Assembly (NCBI GenBank): GCA_029939595.1
Contig: JAOZSQ010000005.1
Span: 4-64,003 of the forward strand
Length of the DNA: 64,000 nucleotides
DNA from: Thermoplasmatota archaeon
Lineage (GTDB): Archaea; Thermoplasmatota; E2; DHVEG-1
Direction: 5' to 3'
A program made the translations under genes and the position numbers. Each line of letters opens with the position of its first letter. The stretch's first letter is position 1. The notes under the pieces were generated by a model. The model saw only the letters and a program-made list of their open reading frames with translations. It had not been told where the DNA came from and did no database searches. Shown in pieces: positions 6,839 through 17,083 of the stretch.

Positions 6839-7227
6839 TGAAAATTCCTATTGCGCCCAACAAGGGTTGTAATCCTTTAATAACAGTTATACACGTTCCA
6901 ATGCCTGTTCTCCTTCCTTTGTAAACCTCATCCCCAATAATAAGAGTTCCTAAAAACACGTTTGTACAAATATACGCATCTATGAGATCTGATTAATAAT
7001 CCTCCTCTTCCCTGTTGAATGATTCCGTTCATATTTTTATCTCCATGAGATATCCAAATATGCCCTGGGTTTTCTTTTCCTTCCTGTGTTTCAGTTCGAA
7101 TGCACTCTCTGTTGTGCCTATAATGGGCACAACATAGTTAAATGCCTGTCCATATCTAAAGACAAGTTGAAAAAATGGGCACAATCAATCTAAATACAAC
7201 TCTCAATGGGCATAATAGGAAAATTCA
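6839..7227. repeat. Non-coding element with imperfect terminal inverted repeats and internal AATGGGCA(C/T)AA repeats
   Basis: Left end TGAAAATTCCTATTGCGCCCAACAAGGGTTGTA versus reverse complement of right end TGAATTTTCCTATTATGCCCATTGAGAGTTGTA; direct copies at 7122, 7174 and 7205; palindrome at 7110-7134. Confidence 0.65.
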
Positions 7228-7442
7228 AACTATTAAGATTCTCTAACACTTTAAAGTTCTTCAGATATTTTATATTATATACAATATTTTTATGTAATAA
7301 ACCTTGCTTCATAAGTGATTTGAATTATAAAAAAATATTTGAAAATTTTTAAATTAAGGGAACACGATGCAGTTGTTCTAAAAATGGACAGATAATTTAA
7401 GAATCATAAAATTGTGTAATTTATTGAATTAAACGACAATTT

Positions 7443-7466
7443 ATTGACGAATAAATTGACGAATAA
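7443..7466. repeat. 12-bp tandem direct repeat ATTGACGAATAA x2
   Basis: Exact copies at 7443-7454 and 7455-7466, upstream of ORF 7506. Confidence 0.7.
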
Positions 7467-7505
7467 ATGAAAGATTTTATTAATTAAAAATGACATTGAT
7501 AATTA

Positions 7506-7763
7506 TTGTCTAAAATTCTAGGTTTGATGGAAATGACGAGATATAAAGTAGAATTAAGTAGGATATTAAAAAAGGGATTGAACGGTAAAGATAAAACTGA
7601 GATTTGGGCAAATATCAAAAATATGGAATCTTGTTCAACTACGAAAAAATTAGTATGGTGGGAAGATGAAAAGGGTCATTTCCATGACGAATCACCAAAT
7701 TTATCATGTGAATTACGGGACATCATTGATAATGCATGGATAGAAAAAAAGAGATACTGGTAG
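7506..7763 (+). CDS. Small hypothetical protein
   Basis: 85-aa ORF in the track; the true start may be the ATG at 7527 or 7533. Confidence 0.6.
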   Translation: MSKILGLMEMTRYKVELSRILKKGLNGKDKTEIWANIKNMESCSTTKKLVWWEDEKGHFHDESPNLSCELRDIIDNAWIEKKRYW

Positions 7764-7785
7764 ATTAAATTATAAAAAAAGATGA

Positions 7786-8052
7786 TCACTTAGATTCTTC
7801 AATAAGGTCTCTGATTTTTTTTGATAATCTTAGTTTTTTATTTTTCTTTGATTTTCTTGTGATTAACAAATTATTTTCTAACATATCTGATATAATTCGA
7901 TATTTTGTCATATGGCTTAATTCACAATGTAATCCAAGAGTATTTGCAAGATCATCAACTTCACGAAGTGCACCATCAATACTTGTTGCAATATGATCTT
8001 TATGAATAACGAATATAATTGTTGCTAGACTTGCATATGTTGTAGATTTCAT
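7786..8052 (-). CDS. Small basic protein, possibly winged-helix DNA-binding
   Basis: GGAGA RBS; helix then L.ENNLL.TRK..K..LRLS, resembling a wHTH wing. Confidence 0.6.
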   Translation of the reverse strand: MKSTTYASLATIIFVIHKDHIATSIDGALREVDDLANTLGLHCELSHMTKYRIISDMLENNLLITRKSKKNKKLRLSKKIRDLIEESK

Positions 8053-8164
8053 AGTGATATCTCCTTATTTCATAACAGATATAGGAATATTATTCTAATA
8101 CCTTTTGATAATGAATTAAAATTTTAGATGATACTAAATCAATTCATTTTAACTGATAAAAATT

Positions 8165-8464
8165 TTATTCTGCTTTTCGTAAATATATTTCAATTGATGG
8201 TATGTCCATTGGTTTATTAGTTTTATTATCAATAATATTTTCAAGCCCTAATTTAACATCATATATAACTGTATCTTCCAAGAATTTTTTATTAACAATT
8301 AAAGCAGCCTCAACGGCTTTTCCAATTGTATGTCCCCTAGCTTTTATGATAACTTCTGAAGATTTTTTAAATTCGGTTAATATAGCCATTACATAATTCA
8401 TTGGTGGTTTATTACCTATAAAAATTACATTGTCATCTTCGTCATCATTACTCATAGTTACCAT
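8165..8464 (-). CDS. albA: DNA/RNA-binding protein Alba
   Basis: IFIGNKPPMNYV, IIKARG, SIEIYL signature. Confidence 0.9.
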   Translation of the reverse strand: MVTMSNDDEDDNVIFIGNKPPMNYVMAILTEFKKSSEVIIKARGHTIGKAVEAALIVNKKFLEDTVIYDVKLGLENIIDNKTNKPMDIPSIEIYLRKAE

Positions 8465-9763: not shown

Positions 9764-11089
9764 TTAGATATATGGTTTTTCATATTTGAAACACTCTTTA
9801 TATCTATGAATAGCAGATTCATAACTAAAATATTTTGTTTCTTTAATAATTTTATCAGAAGGTGACAATTGTTTTTTTATCCTTTCTTCAATAATTTCAA
9901 TGAATTCTCCATTGTCAATTAAATCACGTAGATTTTTTAGAATTTTATTAACTGGATATTTTTGAATACCGTTTCCAAAATCCCAGAATAACAGAGCATT
10001 CATACCATTTTTTATTGATTCATCTAAATTTTTTCGCAGAAATCTTTCAGGGAGAAGATTATGATTATTTTGTATGAGACCAAGTATTGTTTTAACATAA
10101 AATTCAGATAAAGCAACATTTTCAAGAATCGTTGGTTGAGTTGATAATGGTCTAAATTCAATTCTCATATGTGCAGATGGTTTATATCCTACACGAATTC
10201 TTGTCCACCCAAAATATTTTCCAAGCATTATTTCAAAAGCTGCTTCCCCTGATTCATTTTCAGGAAAGTAAAAGGGTTTAAATGATAAAATTGCATAAAA
10301 ATAATCATCAATTGAATTAATATATCCTGGGAATAATCCAACTCGTGGCACATTTTCAGCACCATCATATAATCCTTCCGCTTGTTCAAAAATCGCTATT
10401 TGATGTTCTTTATTTATGAGTTCTTTTCCATTGGTTATCCCACTATTTGCACCTAATGATACAAGGGGTGCTGTGATCATTTGACTATAGTTGAAAAGAT
10501 GAATCAAATCTTTTATGTTTAATGCTTGAAGATGAATATGTAATTCATTTATAATCGAAAGACCTGAATTTCCAGGGAGATAAAAGTAATTACCATCAAT
10601 AAATGATATTGCTGCACCTTTTTTATTTTCCTTTTGAAAATAGTTTGAACTAATCAGATATCTCTGTTTTTGTGCAATATATTTATATTTTTTATAAAAT
10701 AATGGATCAATATGAAATGGTATTCCAATTGGCAATAGATCCATATCATTTTTGTCTCCAAATAATTCCATTTTTTCTCTTATTTTTTGCAAATATTGAT
10801 ATAACTCTTGGAATGCATTACTTCTCAAAGTTTTTGGTGGAGGATTCATTTCAATTTGAAATGAACCAAATTCTGGTACTACATGAAATTCTGATAAAGC
10901 ATCACTCATTATTTCTGCTGAACCAAAACTAAATTTTCCCAATTTACCAAGAAGTGTAAATTCAATTTCTAAACCAAAAAGTCGATTCTTACAGTCAAAT
11001 GATTGAGTCCGTATTACATTATCATAATACTTTTTACTTAATTTTTTAACTAATGATTCTTCATTTTCTGTCAACATTTTTGCTTTCAT
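9764..11089 (-). CDS. Glutamate-cysteine ligase family 2 (GCS2)-like carboxylate-amine ligase
   Basis: FGLEIEF, EFGSFQIEMN, ELHIHLQ, RIEFRP motifs. Confidence 0.75.
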   Translation of the reverse strand: MKAKMLTENEESLVKKLSKKYYDNVIRTQSFDCKNRLFGLEIEFTLLGKLGKFSFGSAEIMSDALSEFHVVPEFGSFQIEMNPPPKTLRSNAFQELYQYLQKIREKMELFGDKNDMDLLPIGIPFHIDPLFYKKYKYIAQKQRYLISSNYFQKENKKGAAISFIDGNYFYLPGNSGLSIINELHIHLQALNIKDLIHLFNYSQMITAPLVSLGANSGITNGKELINKEHQIAIFEQAEGLYDGAENVPRVGLFPGYINSIDDYFYAILSFKPFYFPENESGEAAFEIMLGKYFGWTRIRVGYKPSAHMRIEFRPLSTQPTILENVALSEFYVKTILGLIQNNHNLLPERFLRKNLDESIKNGMNALLFWDFGNGIQKYPVNKILKNLRDLIDNGEFIEIIEERIKKQLSPSDKIIKETKYFSYESAIHRYKECFKYEKPYI

Positions 11090-11456: not shown

Positions 11457-11561
11457 CCTCAAAAAATGTGAATACTCAAGCAATATAAAAAGATATATGA
11501 TTCTTTATAGTTTTTTACGACATTTTTATTAATAGGGTTATCCATTATTTTATTGGGATGC

Positions 11562-12374
11562 ATGGAAAAAATAGTGAAAACTGCTATTTATACAAGGGTT
11601 TCTACTGAAGATCAGGCTAAAGAAGGGTTTTCATTAGATTCTCAACTAGTAAAATTAAAAGCATATTGTAAAGCACGTGATTGGATTATATTTGATGTTT
11701 TTATTGATGATGGTTTCTCTGGAAGAAACACTAAGAGACCCGCATATAAGAGATTACTTGAATCAATTGATTCATGGGATGTATTACTTGTTATTAAAAT
11801 GGATCGTATTCATCGTAATTCAAAAAATTTTATGTTAATGATGGAGTATCTAAAAAAACTTGATAAAGAATTTGTTTCTATGATGGAGTCATTAGATACA
11901 TCAACTGCTATGGGTAGATTCGTTATGGATATCATCCAAAGAATCGCTCAACTTGAATCTGAACAAATTGGTGAGCGTGTATATGATGGTATGCAACAGA
12001 AGGCAAAAATGAATGGAGGGAATCTTGGTTTTAATATTCCATTTGGTTATGATTATCAAGATGGATCATTAATTATTAATCAACTTGAACAAAAACATGT
12101 AAAAAATATCTTTCATCTTTATAAATCAGGTATAAGTATGAATAAAATTGCTTATTCATTTAATGAACAATTAATTCGGACAAAAATGAATAAATCATGG
12201 GGATCAGAAACAATTTCAAAGATTCTTAAAAATCCTCTATATTGTGGGAAATTTCATTGGGACATGTATACCCATGAGGGATCTCATGATGCAATAATTG
12301 ATACTAAATTATTTGATGAAGTACAAAGAATAATTAATAAAAAATCAAGAAATCGACCTAATAAAATGATTTAA
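11562..12374 (+). CDS. Serine recombinase (resolvase catalytic domain plus recombinase DNA-binding domain), copy 1
   Basis: YTRVST catalytic Ser, DDGFSG..RP, DRIHR, PFGY, ILKNPLYCG, HDAIID..F..VQ. Confidence 0.92.
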   Translation: MEKIVKTAIYTRVSTEDQAKEGFSLDSQLVKLKAYCKARDWIIFDVFIDDGFSGRNTKRPAYKRLLESIDSWDVLLVIKMDRIHRNSKNFMLMMEYLKKLDKEFVSMMESLDTSTAMGRFVMDIIQRIAQLESEQIGERVYDGMQQKAKMNGGNLGFNIPFGYDYQDGSLIINQLEQKHVKNIFHLYKSGISMNKIAYSFNEQLIRTKMNKSWGSETISKILKNPLYCGKFHWDMYTHEGSHDAIIDTKLFDEVQRIINKKSRNRPNKMI

Positions 12375-12433
12375 TATTTTTTGTTTTTTTCAATCAATAA
12401 TATTATTAATATCATTATTGTTTTTGTTTTATT

Positions 12434-13252
12434 ATGTACGGGAAGGAAAAAAATGTTGCGATTTATACTAGAGTATCTACTGAGGACCAGGCAAAAGAAG
12501 GTTTTTCTCTTGATAATCAGATTGATAAATTAAGATCATATTGTACTGCAAGAAGTTGGAATGTTTTTCATGAATATGTTGATGATGGTTTCTCTGGGCG
12601 AAATCTTAAAAGACCCGCATACAAACAGATGATGATTGATATTGATAATTGGGATATTCTTTTAGTTTTGAAGATGGATCGTATTCATCGTAATTCAAAA
12701 AATTTTATGTTAATGATGGAAGATCTTAATAAATATGACAAAGAATTTGTTTCTTTAACCGAATCTTTGGATACGTCAACTGCTATGGGTCGATTTGTGA
12801 TGAATATTATCCAATTGATTGCTCAACTTGAATCTGAACAAATTGGTGAAAGGGTTTATGCAGGTATGGAACAGAAAGCTCGTAGTAATAGTGGCGTTCT
12901 TGGTTTTAATATTCCATTTGGTTATGATTATATTGATCATGAATTGTTAATAAATTCTTCTGAATCTATTGTTGTCAAAGATATTTTTTCTCTTTATTTA
13001 CAGGGTAAATCTCTTGGTAAAATTGCTGAATTGCTCAATAATAGTAAAATTGATACAAAAAAGGGGGGGTTTTGGGCAAAAAAAACTATTTCAAACATAA
13101 TTAAAAATCCGCTATATTGTGGATTTTTAAGATGGGACAATATTGTTAATAAAAGTAATCATGAGCCGATTATTTCAATAACTGATTTTAATTTAGTTCA
13201 AGACGCCATTAAAAAAAATAATGGTATTCCATCAAAAAAGATTTCCCTCTAA
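12434..13252 (+). CDS. Serine recombinase (resolvase catalytic domain plus recombinase DNA-binding domain), copy 2
   Basis: YTRVST, DRIHR, PFGY, IIKNPLYCG, HEPIIS..F..VQ; paralog of the upstream gene. Confidence 0.92.
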   Translation: MYGKEKNVAIYTRVSTEDQAKEGFSLDNQIDKLRSYCTARSWNVFHEYVDDGFSGRNLKRPAYKQMMIDIDNWDILLVLKMDRIHRNSKNFMLMMEDLNKYDKEFVSLTESLDTSTAMGRFVMNIIQLIAQLESEQIGERVYAGMEQKARSNSGVLGFNIPFGYDYIDHELLINSSESIVVKDIFSLYLQGKSLGKIAELLNNSKIDTKKGGFWAKKTISNIIKNPLYCGFLRWDNIVNKSNHEPIISITDFNLVQDAIKKNNGIPSKKISL

Positions 13253-13294
13253 ATCTCAATAAAATTCAATATTTTGGTAATTGGTTATTATATA

Positions 13295-13333
13295 AATGTT
13301 GTTAAGTTGCATGCTTAATTATTTAACAACATT
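13295..13333. repeat. Inverted repeat AATGTTGTTAA-N17-TTAACAACATT
   Basis: Perfect 11-bp arms; the right arm recurs at 13796-13806. Confidence 0.65.
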
Positions 13334-13415
13334 GTTTATCTTTATGTTTTTTGAATTTTTTTGATAAAAAAATTTTTGTTTTTTTTTGTTTTTAAAATTG
13401 TTGACATTTCAACCG

Positions 13416-13434
13416 TGCTAGACCTTTTCTAGCA
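13416..13434. repeat. Palindromic site 1, TGCTAGA-CCTTT-TCTAGCA
   Basis: Perfect 7-bp arms; 17/19 identical to the reverse complement of site 2. Confidence 0.8.
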
Positions 13435-13744
13435 TTTTTAATATTTTAGTCAATTTTGTCAAAACAAAAAATTTCCAAATAATTTTGTTCGCTACACACA
13501 ATTTTCAATTTCAAAAACAAAATTTTTCACCATAAAATATTTCTAAAAAATTCCATATCTTATAGTAAAAGGTTACCTTCGGATTACCGATGTTGATAAG
13601 CTTTTTATCTTAAAAGCACCTTTTTCACCCATTAACCAGGGGTTTTTACATTTTTAATGTAAAATAAACTCTAAGATTGATAAGATCTAAAATTATTTTT
13701 GATTTCTCATTTAAAAAAAAATAAAATTGGCCCTAATTTTTATT

Positions 13745-13763
13745 TGCTAGATAAAGTCTAGCA
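13745..13763. repeat. Palindromic site 2, TGCTAGA-TAAAG-TCTAGCA
   Basis: Perfect 7-bp arms; spacer is inverted relative to site 1. Confidence 0.8.
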
Positions 13764-14135
13764 TAATAAATCCATTTAAACAATCATGTTATAATTTAAC
13801 AACATTCTGATTTAAAATGATATAATTTAACACGATAATATAAGATTAATCATAATTAATTAATAATTAACGTATTAACGTAATAGTTTAACAATTACAA
13901 CAATATAGGTTAAATTAAAAAATTTTATTTATATTTGTCACATTAATTATAAATAAAAAATTTATAAACAATGAAAAACGTTAAAAATAACTAAATACAT
14001 TAATTATAATTGACAGTTAAGATATATGCATAAATATTTAACTATGAAGGAAAACTTATAGAAAGCTTTTAAATCCAGTAAAAAATTACCTAAATTAATA
14101 AGTTCACAATATTAATACAAAAAGGGTTAAGAAAT

Positions 14136-14795
14136 ATGTACATAATCATTATTGGTGCTGGTGGCATTGGAAAACGTCTTACCGAATTTTCTTTGAGCGA
14201 AGGGAAAAATAACGTAATAGTTATTGATAAAGATCAAGAAAGATGTGAAGAAATTGCTCGTAAATATGATGCAATTGCAATCAATGCCGATGCGACTCAA
14301 GAAGAAGCGCTTGACGAATCAGAAATTACAAAAGCAGATGTATTAGTAACAACAACAAGAGACGATGCTGTAAATCTTATGATTGTATCACTTGCCAAAA
14401 ACAAGGGAGTAAAACATCTAGTTTCAGTTGTCAATCAGGAAGAAAGCAAACCAATGTATATGGAAAAAAATGTTAAAATGGTAAAAAGCCCTAATATCCT
14501 AATGGCAGAAAACCTATACAAATCAATCAAACATCCATCAGTAGAAGAATATATGAATGTTGGAAAACATGCTGAAATATTTAGGATTCCACTTTCGCCA
14601 AATTCAAAATTCTCAGGAAAAACAATACAAAAAATAGGGCTTCCTAAAAAAAGTTTAATCGTTGCAATTGAACGTGACAATAAATTTATTATTCCAACAG
14701 AAGATGTAGAACTATTTGCAGGAGACAAAGCAACTATTCTTGCACATAAAGATTTTGTTGATAAAGTAGCAGCCCTTTTCTCTGGTGGAAATTAA
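14136..14795 (+). CDS. trkA: TrkA family potassium-uptake NAD-binding (RCK) protein
   Basis: IIIIGAGGIG Rossmann motif, ADAT, C-terminal TrkA-C domain. Confidence 0.88.
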   Translation: MYIIIIGAGGIGKRLTEFSLSEGKNNVIVIDKDQERCEEIARKYDAIAINADATQEEALDESEITKADVLVTTTRDDAVNLMIVSLAKNKGVKHLVSVVNQEESKPMYMEKNVKMVKSPNILMAENLYKSIKHPSVEEYMNVGKHAEIFRIPLSPNSKFSGKTIQKIGLPKKSLIVAIERDNKFIIPTEDVELFAGDKATILAHKDFVDKVAALFSGGN

Positions 14796-16129: not shown

Positions 16130-17083
16130 ATGGGGAAAGCAATCGAAATCAAATCAATTGATGATTTACCTGGTGTCGGACCAGCAACAGCAGAAAAACT
16201 TCGTGAAGCGGGCTTTTCAGATATCATGAGCATCGCTGTTTCATCACCACGGGAACTTTCAGATGCTGCTGAAATCGGCGAAAGCACAGGTTCAAAAATG
16301 ATTCTTCACGCAAGGAAATCTTCAAATCTTGGAAATTTTGAAACAGGAAACACATTACTTGAAAAAAGAGGCAATATTGGTCGAATAACAACAAGTTCAA
16401 GCACATTAAATGAACTACTTGGTGGAGGATTTGAAACACAATCCATTATTGAATTATTTGGAGAATTTGGTTCAGCGAAAACTCAAATAGCTCATCAATT
16501 ATGTGTCAATACTCAACTCTCAAAGGAACAAGGCGGGATGGAAAGTCATGTTTTTTTCATTGATACAGAAAATACCTTTCGACCTGAACGTATAATACAA
16601 ATGGCAGAAGGACATGATTTAGATCCTGAAAAAATATTAGAAAACATTCATGTAGCAAGAGCATATAATTCAAATCATCAAATGCTTCTTGTAGAAAAAG
16701 TAATTGAAATGTCAAAAGAAATTAATTCATCTCTTCTTATCGTTGATTCATTGACCGCACATTTCAGAGCGGAATATATTGGACGTGGTGCACTTGCAGA
16801 CCGTCAACAAAAACTAAATAGACATATGCATGATTTATTACGTTGGAGTGATCTAAATAATGGTGTGGTCTGTGTAACCAATCAAGTATCATCAAAACCT
16901 GATGCTTTTTTTGGTGATCCCACCCGTCCTATTGGAGGTCATATCGTTGGCCATACTGCAACATTTCGAATTTATTTACGAAAGAGTAAAGGACCAAGAA
17001 GAATAGCACGTTTAATTGATTCGCCATATTTACCTGAAGGTGAAGCAGTATTTACAGTAAGTGAAGCAGGCATTCGTGATTAA
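16130..17083 (+). CDS. radA: DNA repair and recombination protein RadA
   Basis: N-terminal HhH ([12 protein letters not shown]), [34 protein letters not shown]. Confidence 0.96.

Follow-up and report, generated by a model that had tools for sequence, protein, structure and literature searches.

What do two short serine recombinases, encoded side by side on the chromosome of a Thermoplasmatota archaeon, act on, and what would they be kept for? The question is raised by a stretch of 64,000 nucleotides (positions 4 to 64,003, forward strand, of contig JAOZSQ010000005.1 in assembly GCA_029939595.1), which is called the window here and to which all coordinates refer unless another contig is named. 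We favour, with a probability of about 55%, a resident, vertically inherited recombination module composed of the recombinase or recombinases, a single 26-bp site (C-site) and two flanking accessory palindromes (A-sites) about 165 bp off. The likely crossover site of this module is the C-site, which was missed by an earlier note on the same DNA that described the genes and the flanking palindromes. The module contains the following elements.

11562–12374, plus strand: serine recombinase A, with Resolvase and Recombinase domains, of the short large-serine-recombinase (LSR) type; the genus-type orthologue.
12434–13252, plus strand: serine recombinase B, an extra paralog of 272 amino acids with the same domains as A.
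13416–13434, no strand: A-site 1, TGCTAGA-CCTTT-TCTAGCA, its centre 160 bp to the left of the C-site centre.
13572–13597, no strand: C-site, GTTACCTTCGGA-TT-ACCGATGTTGAT, a candidate crossover site of 26 bp with a 12-2-12 layout.
13745–13763, no strand: A-site 2, TGCTAGA-TAAAG-TCTAGCA, its centre 170 bp to the right of the C-site centre.

The open reading frames (ORFs) of A and B are intact and arranged head to tail within positions 11553–13763. The earlier note described two adjacent paralogs of about 270 residues lacking the zinc ribbon and coiled coil, and both statements hold: the proteins have 273 and 272 residues and are 64% identical. The 273-residue form of A uses an alternative TTG start at 11553, and the ATG at 11562 matches the orthologues better. 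Pfam Resolvase (PF00239) matches A and B at E-values of 6e-38 and 4e-39, and Pfam Recombinase (PF07508) at 3e-20 and 2e-21. In a sequence search of the Protein Data Bank (PDB), residues 6–135 resemble the catalytic domain of TP901-1 integrase (E 4e-32) and residues 161–263 the recombinase domain of A118 integrase (4kis chain residues 25–123), and nothing in A or B aligned with the later two thirds of that chain, which contain the zinc ribbon and coiled coil. The Pfam search likewise gave no match to Zn_ribbon_recom in either protein at E up to 0.1, and none to HTH_7, in whose place the Recombinase domain stands. Residues R13, S15, D82 and R83, together with others of the catalytic domain, are invariant in 20 aligned sequences.

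By these motifs, A and B are assigned to the serine recombinase superfamily, with the nucleophilic serine in its YxRVSTxxQ context and the conserved arginine and aspartate. They share the recombinase domain with the LSRs, without the zinc ribbon, the coiled coil or the length of about 400–700 residues that mark that group. The predicted proteins also differ from the small resolvases and invertases, which have about 185 residues and a C-terminal HTH_7, and from the Xer family, which is characterized by a tyrosine recombinase catalytic domain. The best NCBIfam matches are the N-terminal halves of CcrB, CcrA, CcrC and XisF, all scoring far under the cut-offs, and the IS607 model covers the catalytic domain only, with 51 bits against a cut-off of 110. 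At the DNA level, the catalytic cores of A and B are 80–93% identical and contain identical runs of 47, 29 and 34 nt, located in the stretches of approximately 11772–12011 and 12644–12883. Short-read assemblies break at these runs, where contig ends are found.

The C-site falls midway between the two A-sites. A 26-bp site with a non-palindromic 2-bp centre represents the crossover geometry of Hin, Gin and resolvase site I. In the A118 structure, the zinc-ribbon domain reads the outer part of the att sites, and 26 bp is about the contact that would be expected of an LSR without this domain. Relatives within the genus share a near-perfect 26-bp palindrome, ATCAACTTYGGT-NN-ACCGAAGTTGAT, and the rest of the segment of about 310 bp between the A-sites has diverged. 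In the genome studied here, 7 of the 12 arm positions are self-complementary, making a poor hairpin. Two public sequencing runs from different studies (X1 and X2) carry the same tandem genes and an identical C-site, and no variants of the site are listed in the contigs of the two.

We surveyed 80 public loci by a blind scan for 12-2-12 palindromes near the gene. The scan, whose loci belong by title to Thermoplasmatota, Methanomassiliicoccales and Hydrothermarchaeota, yielded essentially one palindrome family, which is present in 57 of the 80 loci. Its inner core, CGG-W-NN-W-CCG, is conserved across the loci of these three groups. The centre is CT or AG in 53 of the 57 sites and reads, relative to the gene, AG in 31 and CT in 22. 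The outer arms vary in step on both sides, by lineage type, and the following arm types are distinguished.

TACC type: GTTACCTT
CAAC type: ATCAACTT
GGCT type: GTGGCTAA
AAAC type: GTAAACAA

A whole-genome pattern scan found the C-site to be unique in this genome. Among 41 related genomes, the core-type match is single in every genome that has one. In 17 of the 19 genomes with a core match, the site is located on the contig of the recombinase, at most about 1.2 kb from the gene; the remaining two genomes are 59–60% complete, and the recombinase gene was not found in them. On contig C123, the half-site ATCAACTTCGGT occurs by itself, with no second arm, and was judged to be a chance match. Within clades, the centre may read AG or CT when oriented by the gene or by the conserved flank; this flank, GTTGATAAG, holds one orientation in the genus. 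The flipping of the dinucleotide might be due to template switching at the palindrome.

The A-sites have a different character. Their positions, the identity of 17 of 19 bases in inverted orientation and the lack of any shared base (0/5) between the spacers CCTTT and TAAAG in direct orientation are all as first reported. At up to two mismatches, 0.13 matches are expected by chance in the window, and 1 of 100 shuffles reached two. These are the only two perfect A-sites in the genome of 2.64 Mb and 128 contigs, in which one further site with one mismatch occurs on another contig; a reversed control pattern had no match anywhere in the 2.64 Mb. The co-occurrence of sites and genes in relatives, which the earlier note had proposed as a check, was found in 20 of 20 orthologous loci (one to three A-type sites each, at up to three mismatches). 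Within the genus, A-type sites are present in 10 of 11 genomes, two sites in nine of them, and always beside the recombinase gene. The sole genus genome without them (G009) also misses the neighbouring srp19, and its A-site region is probably unassembled.

In the TACC and CAAC clades, the A-sites bracket the C-site on both sides. The right A-site lies at +160 to +213 from the C-site in most loci. The left one is found either at −157 to −185 or, where the gene separates it from the C-site, at −890 to −950. No A-sites were found in the GGCT or AAAC clades. The spacers are AT-rich, not conserved, and unmatched between the two sites in relatives. In addition, the contigs of the two runs contain strain variants in the spacers, at 13425 in one run and at 13754/13755 in another, and the arms are free of variants. 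The A-site motif is constant whatever the C-arm type and is unrelated to the C arms, and no extra C-arm motif copies were found near the C-sites (eight extra arm 8-mers in 57 loci, mostly AT-rich). Since the nearby DNA holds no further C-arm motifs and the A motif is independent of arm type, the A-sites are not res-like subsites; accessory subsites that repeat the crossover half-site motif, the mark of a res-type system, appear to be absent.

Moreover, the 7-5-7 geometry of the A-sites places the dyad on a base pair and not between two, and their genome-wide distribution, in this genome and in the genus, gives no hint of a regulon. The A-sites are better read, from their sequence and placement, as accessory or regulatory boxes than as crossover partners. 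This agrees with the alternative offered earlier, in which the palindromes are boxes bound by a factor, and speaks against their proposed use as crossover sites. Two other occurrences were observed in relatives: in one, a second A-type palindrome pair, 51 bp apart, on another contig (G033:C6:62648-62717), and in another, two A-type sites that bracket a divergent small serine recombinase of 29% identity (G016:C32:30571-32110).

The arm type of the C-site corresponds with the enzyme clade. In a careful tree of 57 recombinase sequences (supports given as ultrafast bootstrap, UFBoot, and Shimodaira–Hasegawa-like approximate likelihood ratio test, SH-aLRT), the loci with CAAC sites form one clade (100/99) and those with GGCT sites another (100/100), and the loci with TACC sites constitute an unresolved grade beside the CAAC clade. 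The pattern is the same in a quick tree of 119 rows, from which L061 and L082 (over-long matches) and L092 (too short) were excluded. Within the CAAC clade, recombinase A falls among the sequences of the genus (99/90 and 97/97). Recombinase B has a long branch and is placed with TACC-type sequences, not in the CAAC clade.

A strict search for alignment columns that discriminate the clades gave three, and the signature segment was then examined position by position. At residues 212, 215, 216 and 217, B has G, A, K and K, the TACC states found in 17, 20, 20 and 20 of 20 TACC sequences. A has K, G, S and E at these positions and is CAAC-like; the CAAC set has K or R in 16 of 16 sequences, G in 9 of 16, S in 9 of 16, and Q in 15 of 16 or E in 1 of 16. 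The C-site itself combines the two types, its left arm being identical to the TACC arm (L036, L047) and its right arm to the CAAC arm of L077. Two half-sites for two proteins would make sense, and this genome may be regarded as a natural experiment. The chimeric site and the matching signatures of the paralogs suggest recognition of the arms by the recombinase and a heteromeric enzyme of A and B, in keeping with the heteromeric pair that had been considered possible.

Pairs of recombinases are also found elsewhere. Methanomassiliicoccales-type families contain an old tandem pair, the two copies of which fall into separate clades, and in some lineages a second gene lies inside the bracket, coding either for a protein with HNH and Recombinase domains or for another, divergent small recombinase. 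Old tandem pairs and bracketed second genes in other lineages imply that multi-subunit versions recur, and the pair in this genome seems to have arisen apart from the old ones. We examined 20 loci of 6.6 kb from the tandem-pair lineages (f11, f44, f48 and f49). In several of them (L122, L124, L127–L130, L133 and L134), GTCAGAC-N4-GTCTGAC-like inverted repeats occur 18–56 bp upstream of the first gene of the pair, and such a repeat may be the cognate site or an operator in these lineages. The shared k-mer GGAATGATGTAA proved to belong to the end of the coding sequence of an adjacent gene.

The surroundings of the module are those of a resident locus. Its flanking genes encode ribosomal S8e, SRP19, a 441-residue ORF, TrkA, alpha-amylase and RadA, and no mobile-element genes flank it. 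Both the CAAC and the TACC clade show the gene order rps8e/srp19–recombinase–trkA, with rps8e/srp19 upstream in 12 of 16 CAAC and 10 of 20 TACC loci and trkA in 11 of 16 and 9 of 20, numbers that are limited by contig ends. In the GGCT clade, the recombinase gene lies beside rps8e/srp19 in 8 of 15 loci. An orthologue with 62–71% identity is present in 32 of the 41 related genomes, and in three genomes of the window's family that lack the recombinase, the syntenic region is either absent or truncated by the end of a contig. Housekeeping neighbours, conserved across recombinase clades, and the wide presence in relatives thus bear out two earlier claims, that no phage, plasmid or transposon genes flank the pair and that the enzymes are resident. 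In a phylum sample of 301 genomes at a completeness of at least 80%, the recombinase family occurs in 125; at the family level, it is present in 12/12, 13/13 and 37/37 (f11) genomes of three families and in 0/47 and 0/23 of two others.

From this anatomy, the following mechanism may be proposed. The subunits would bind the two 12-bp arms of the C-site through their recombinase domains, and cleavage would occur around the central dinucleotide. Most likely, B would occupy the left (TACC-type) arm and A the right (CAAC-type) arm, together forming a heterodimer. Such an A/B heterodimer on an asymmetric site would be an XerC/D-like arrangement, arisen independently. With one site per chromosome, the enzyme would act only when two copies meet. 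Because the genome holds one such site, its natural substrate would be two C-site copies on a chromosome dimer or multimer, the outcome being resolution as achieved by Xer at dif; a matching site on an incoming circle is a second possible substrate. The A-sites would be bound by the recombinase in another mode or by a separate, unlinked factor, with an accessory or regulatory function and not as crossover partners.

In bacteria and archaea, the resolution of chromosome dimers is attributed to tyrosine recombinases (Xer), and several observations bear on whether the module could take this role. A single conserved site served by an apparently vertically inherited recombinase is the arrangement of a dif-type system. 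In ten closed genomes (f11, f44 and f48), the locus lies at 0.75–1.00 of the maximal distance from the best-scoring cdc6 gene, the values being 0.97, 0.85, 0.96, 0.90, ~0.99, 0.75, 1.00, 0.86, 0.78 and ~0.93, with two genome lengths rounded. The distribution of XerA was compared as well. XerA scores over its cut-off in 59 genomes, 6 of which have this recombinase; among the other 242, 119 have it. The families with consistent high-scoring XerA have no listed match for this recombinase, and in 35 of 37 near-complete f11 genomes the recombinase is present and a good XerA match is absent.

The tyrosine recombinases of the genome studied here score 90, 91 and 31 bits against the XerA model, which has a cut-off of 220. 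When one of them was searched in the relatives, it was found in 7 of 41 genomes, and since they are patchy in this way, the tyrosine recombinases of about 410 residues are probably mobile-element integrases. In G000, tyrosine and serine recombinases are located at ~7019–8182 and 14091–14495 on contig C45 and at 272–1516 on contig C29. Two tyrosine recombinases of about 410 residues in G000 have a C-terminal CxxC...CxxC tail, and one of this size lies 6 kb from a small serine recombinase (234-residue frame).

Single-copy sites, synteny and, in the ten closed genomes of other families, a position opposed to cdc6 fit the chromosome-maintenance job that was suggested from the sequence at first. 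We regard chromosome multimer resolution as a serious candidate for the role of the module, at somewhat less than even odds. A broader proposal is more tentative: that a serine recombinase without a zinc ribbon, acting on a 26-bp site, does the Xer/dif job in much of Thermoplasmatota and Hydrothermarchaeota, and that this genome has caught the birth of a two-subunit version, in which a second recombinase was acquired and the site became chimeric, re-inventing with serine chemistry the arrangement of XerC/D on an asymmetric dif.

Several points weigh against these interpretations. With respect to the site, the centre in this genome, at 13584–13585, is TT and not the usual CT or AG, so that its C-site might be decaying, and the chimeric site is a single case. 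The strict C-core was found in 1 of 20 tandem-pair loci over the whole 6.6 kb, about 2.3 kb from the genes, and a relaxed core within about 900 bp of the pair in 1 of 20. Common descent alone would correlate arm type with enzyme clade, and the correlation therefore does not prove recognition. The position of B is also unsure, as its branch is long (0.51). By the approximately unbiased (AU) test, a placement of B as sister to the CAAC clade is not rejected (p 0.59), and a sister relationship of A and B is only marginally disfavoured (log-likelihood 34.5 lower, AU p 0.069). Moreover, the DNA runs shared by A and B suggest gene conversion, which would blur the tree.

The dimer-resolution role meets difficulties of its own. 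The ten closed genomes are related and not independent. In the window's family, the two single-contig genomes give cdc6-distance values of 0.85 (G019) and 0.31 (G013), and the GC skew of G019, sparsely sampled in 20 windows of 20 kb, reveals no strand switch at the locus; this skew mostly follows gene strand. In addition, family f23 has this recombinase as well as an Xer-like gene of 271–299 residues, a tyrosine recombinase at E-values of 1e-46 to 1e-69 is present in about 10 of the 28 f1 genomes that carry the serine recombinase, and the window's family is mixed for XerA versus this recombinase.

Other explanations of the locus were weighed against the same evidence. Site and enzyme could serve mainly as a landing pad, capturing and releasing circular elements without an integrase of their own, in the manner of integrative mobile elements exploiting Xer (IMEX). 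A lone, conserved palindrome next to a recombinase of the host is the kind of target that such elements would use, but no inserted element is present here, the contigs of the two runs are collinear over the site, no mobile-element genes flank it, and the two C-site patterns that were scanned (CAAC and TACC type) have 0 matches each in IMG/VR. A host would not conserve an enzyme for the benefit of parasites, and this explanation, which we consider unlikely, would leave landing a secondary use at most.

More doubtful is a domesticated regulator, in which the proteins have lost recombination activity and, bound to the palindromes, regulate their own genes or neighbours such as trkA, or in which the central palindrome is a hairpin or terminator. 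The C-site is indeed located just upstream of the start codon in some lineages, and the A-sites lie 60–120 bp upstream of the gene in some, both operator-like positions. Yet the entire catalytic core is invariant, its catalytic residues included, a conservation for which a pure regulator would have no use, and in Tn3-type resolvases autoregulation and recombination coexist. The conserved, non-palindromic CT/AG centre, present in both orientations, fits a DNA site and not an RNA; and in this genome the arms pair at only 7 of 12 positions, yet each matches a known arm type exactly.

Equally improbable is a remnant or active mobile element, by which genes and sites would constitute a transposon, an integrative element or a plasmid-derived resolution cassette. 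In favour of this, B falls outside the clade that contains its neighbour A and was probably acquired from a different lineage, and among annotated genes the closest relatives are bacterial, namely phage integrases and plasmid ‘recombinase family’ genes. These nearest phage and plasmid proteins are bacterial LSRs of at most 43% identity, and close relatives are almost absent from viral contigs: public genomes contain at least 570 loci of the recombinase, whereas IMG/VR has two close matches. The two (L158 and L159) are short tandem-pair fragments with ordinary-looking genes and no viral genes, and are probably chromosomal fragments. In addition, the chromosomal neighbourhood is conserved across clades and empty of mobile-element genes, most genomes have one copy, and the tree tracks lineages. 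A single, syntenic locus is likewise not what would be expected of IS607-type or other mobile elements, which are marked by several copies or shifting positions and by an N-terminal MerR-like HTH.

There remains the flipping of the 310-bp segment, which the earlier note had proposed together with a search for both orientations across 13416–13763. One orientation only was found. In run X1, one contig of 1571 nt spans 12902–14473 unbroken and collinear with the window. In run X2, contigs covering 12902–13423 and 13458–13900 are collinear, with a 34-nt gap just right of A-site 1. No inversion joint across the segment was found in the contigs of these two runs, which cannot reveal rare forms. A third run (X3) has loose ends near 13430 and 13915 that are not interpretable. 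Furthermore, one crossover-type site per genome makes inversion or deletion within a monomer impossible, and the locus lacks the signs of an invertible switch, namely two inverted sites with matching cores and both orientations. An inversion by strand exchange at the TGCTAGA-N5-TCTAGCA sites is highly improbable. The site pair is real, unique and conserved about 330 bp apart in the genus, with spacers that are here more alike inverted than direct, but in all 7 of 7 genus genomes the sequence around the C-site points the same way with respect to the gene, the spacers are unmatched in relatives and variable between strains, the site length is odd, the contigs are collinear (a weak point, as rare forms are hidden in them), and other lineages hold A-sites 890–950 bp from the C-site with the gene between, always bracketing the C-site.

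The recombination module favoured here may be compared with known systems. Like the LSRs (TP901-1, A118/LI, Bxb1 and phiC31, as well as CcrA/B and XisF), A and B have a TP901-1-type catalytic domain followed by a recombinase domain, and the putative C-site has a non-palindromic central dinucleotide. Unlike them, they stop after the recombinase domain, with 272 residues versus about 450–700 and neither zinc ribbon nor coiled coil. The C-site has 26 bp, compared with the 40–50 bp of LSR att sites, and the module, with its single site, keeps a syntenic place on the chromosome and is not part of a phage or island.

With XerC/D–dif and the archaeal XerA–dif, the module shares one conserved site per genome, served by a conserved, vertically inherited recombinase. 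The location of the locus roughly opposite cdc6 in the ten closed genomes is also in line with these systems, and the two paralogs and asymmetric site of this genome resemble XerC/D at dif. The differences are the serine recombinase in place of a tyrosine recombinase and the flanking accessory palindromes present here; the role of the module, moreover, is a proposed one, and some lineages have both systems. The dif site is described in a 2021 review as 11-6-11, as opposed to the 12-2-12 of the C-site (PMC8371274).

The resolvase/res systems (Tn3/gamma-delta, Sin, beta and ParA of RP4) are similar in encoding a serine recombinase beside its own site, with 12-bp half-sites around a 2-bp centre and accessory sites nearby. 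The res site of Tn3 overlaps the promoter region of the recombinase gene, and the C-site does so in some lineages. In contrast to these systems, the DNA-binding part of A and B is an LSR recombinase domain and not a small helix-turn-helix, the accessory motif differs from the crossover arms and lies to the left and right of the C-site, either about 165 bp away or separated from it by the gene, and the context is chromosomal and not a transposon. The Hin/Gin/Cin invertases have a 26-bp 12-2-12 site and a recombinase gene beside or inside the bracketed DNA, as seen here, but the module has one crossover-type site per genome, no sign of inversion and no HTH_7.

The 2021 review states that archaeal serine recombinases have never been fully investigated (PMC8371274), and our search of the full-text literature, outside which lie subscription journals and supplementary files, found no description of the module. 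If the proposed role is true, the module would represent, in lineages without consistent XerA, a second solution to chromosome dimer resolution, and it would define a minimal LSR in which a catalytic and a recombinase domain act on a 26-bp site. The correspondence of arm type with a short stretch of the protein would be a natural specificity code, which is directly testable and would be useful for the engineering of compact recombinases. The chimeric site with two paralogs would provide a rare snapshot of how heteromeric recombinase systems may arise.

Some minor features of the region complete the description. The 441-residue ORF (9764–11089, minus strand), located between srp19 and the recombinases, matches no Pfam family at E up to 0.001. 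The window has no Rfam match at gathering thresholds, and ARAGORN found no tRNA in it. A reading of the 880-bp AT-rich gap as a replication origin was rejected: both cdc6 genes of the genome lie on other contigs, and the palindromes do not have the form of origin-box repeats. Finally, radA is located at 16130–17083, about 3 kb downstream of the recombinase locus; a homologous-recombination gene close to a putative dimer-resolution module may be a coincidence. The gene is similarly placed in four genus-level loci (L076, L077, L080 and L083), with 80–89% identity.

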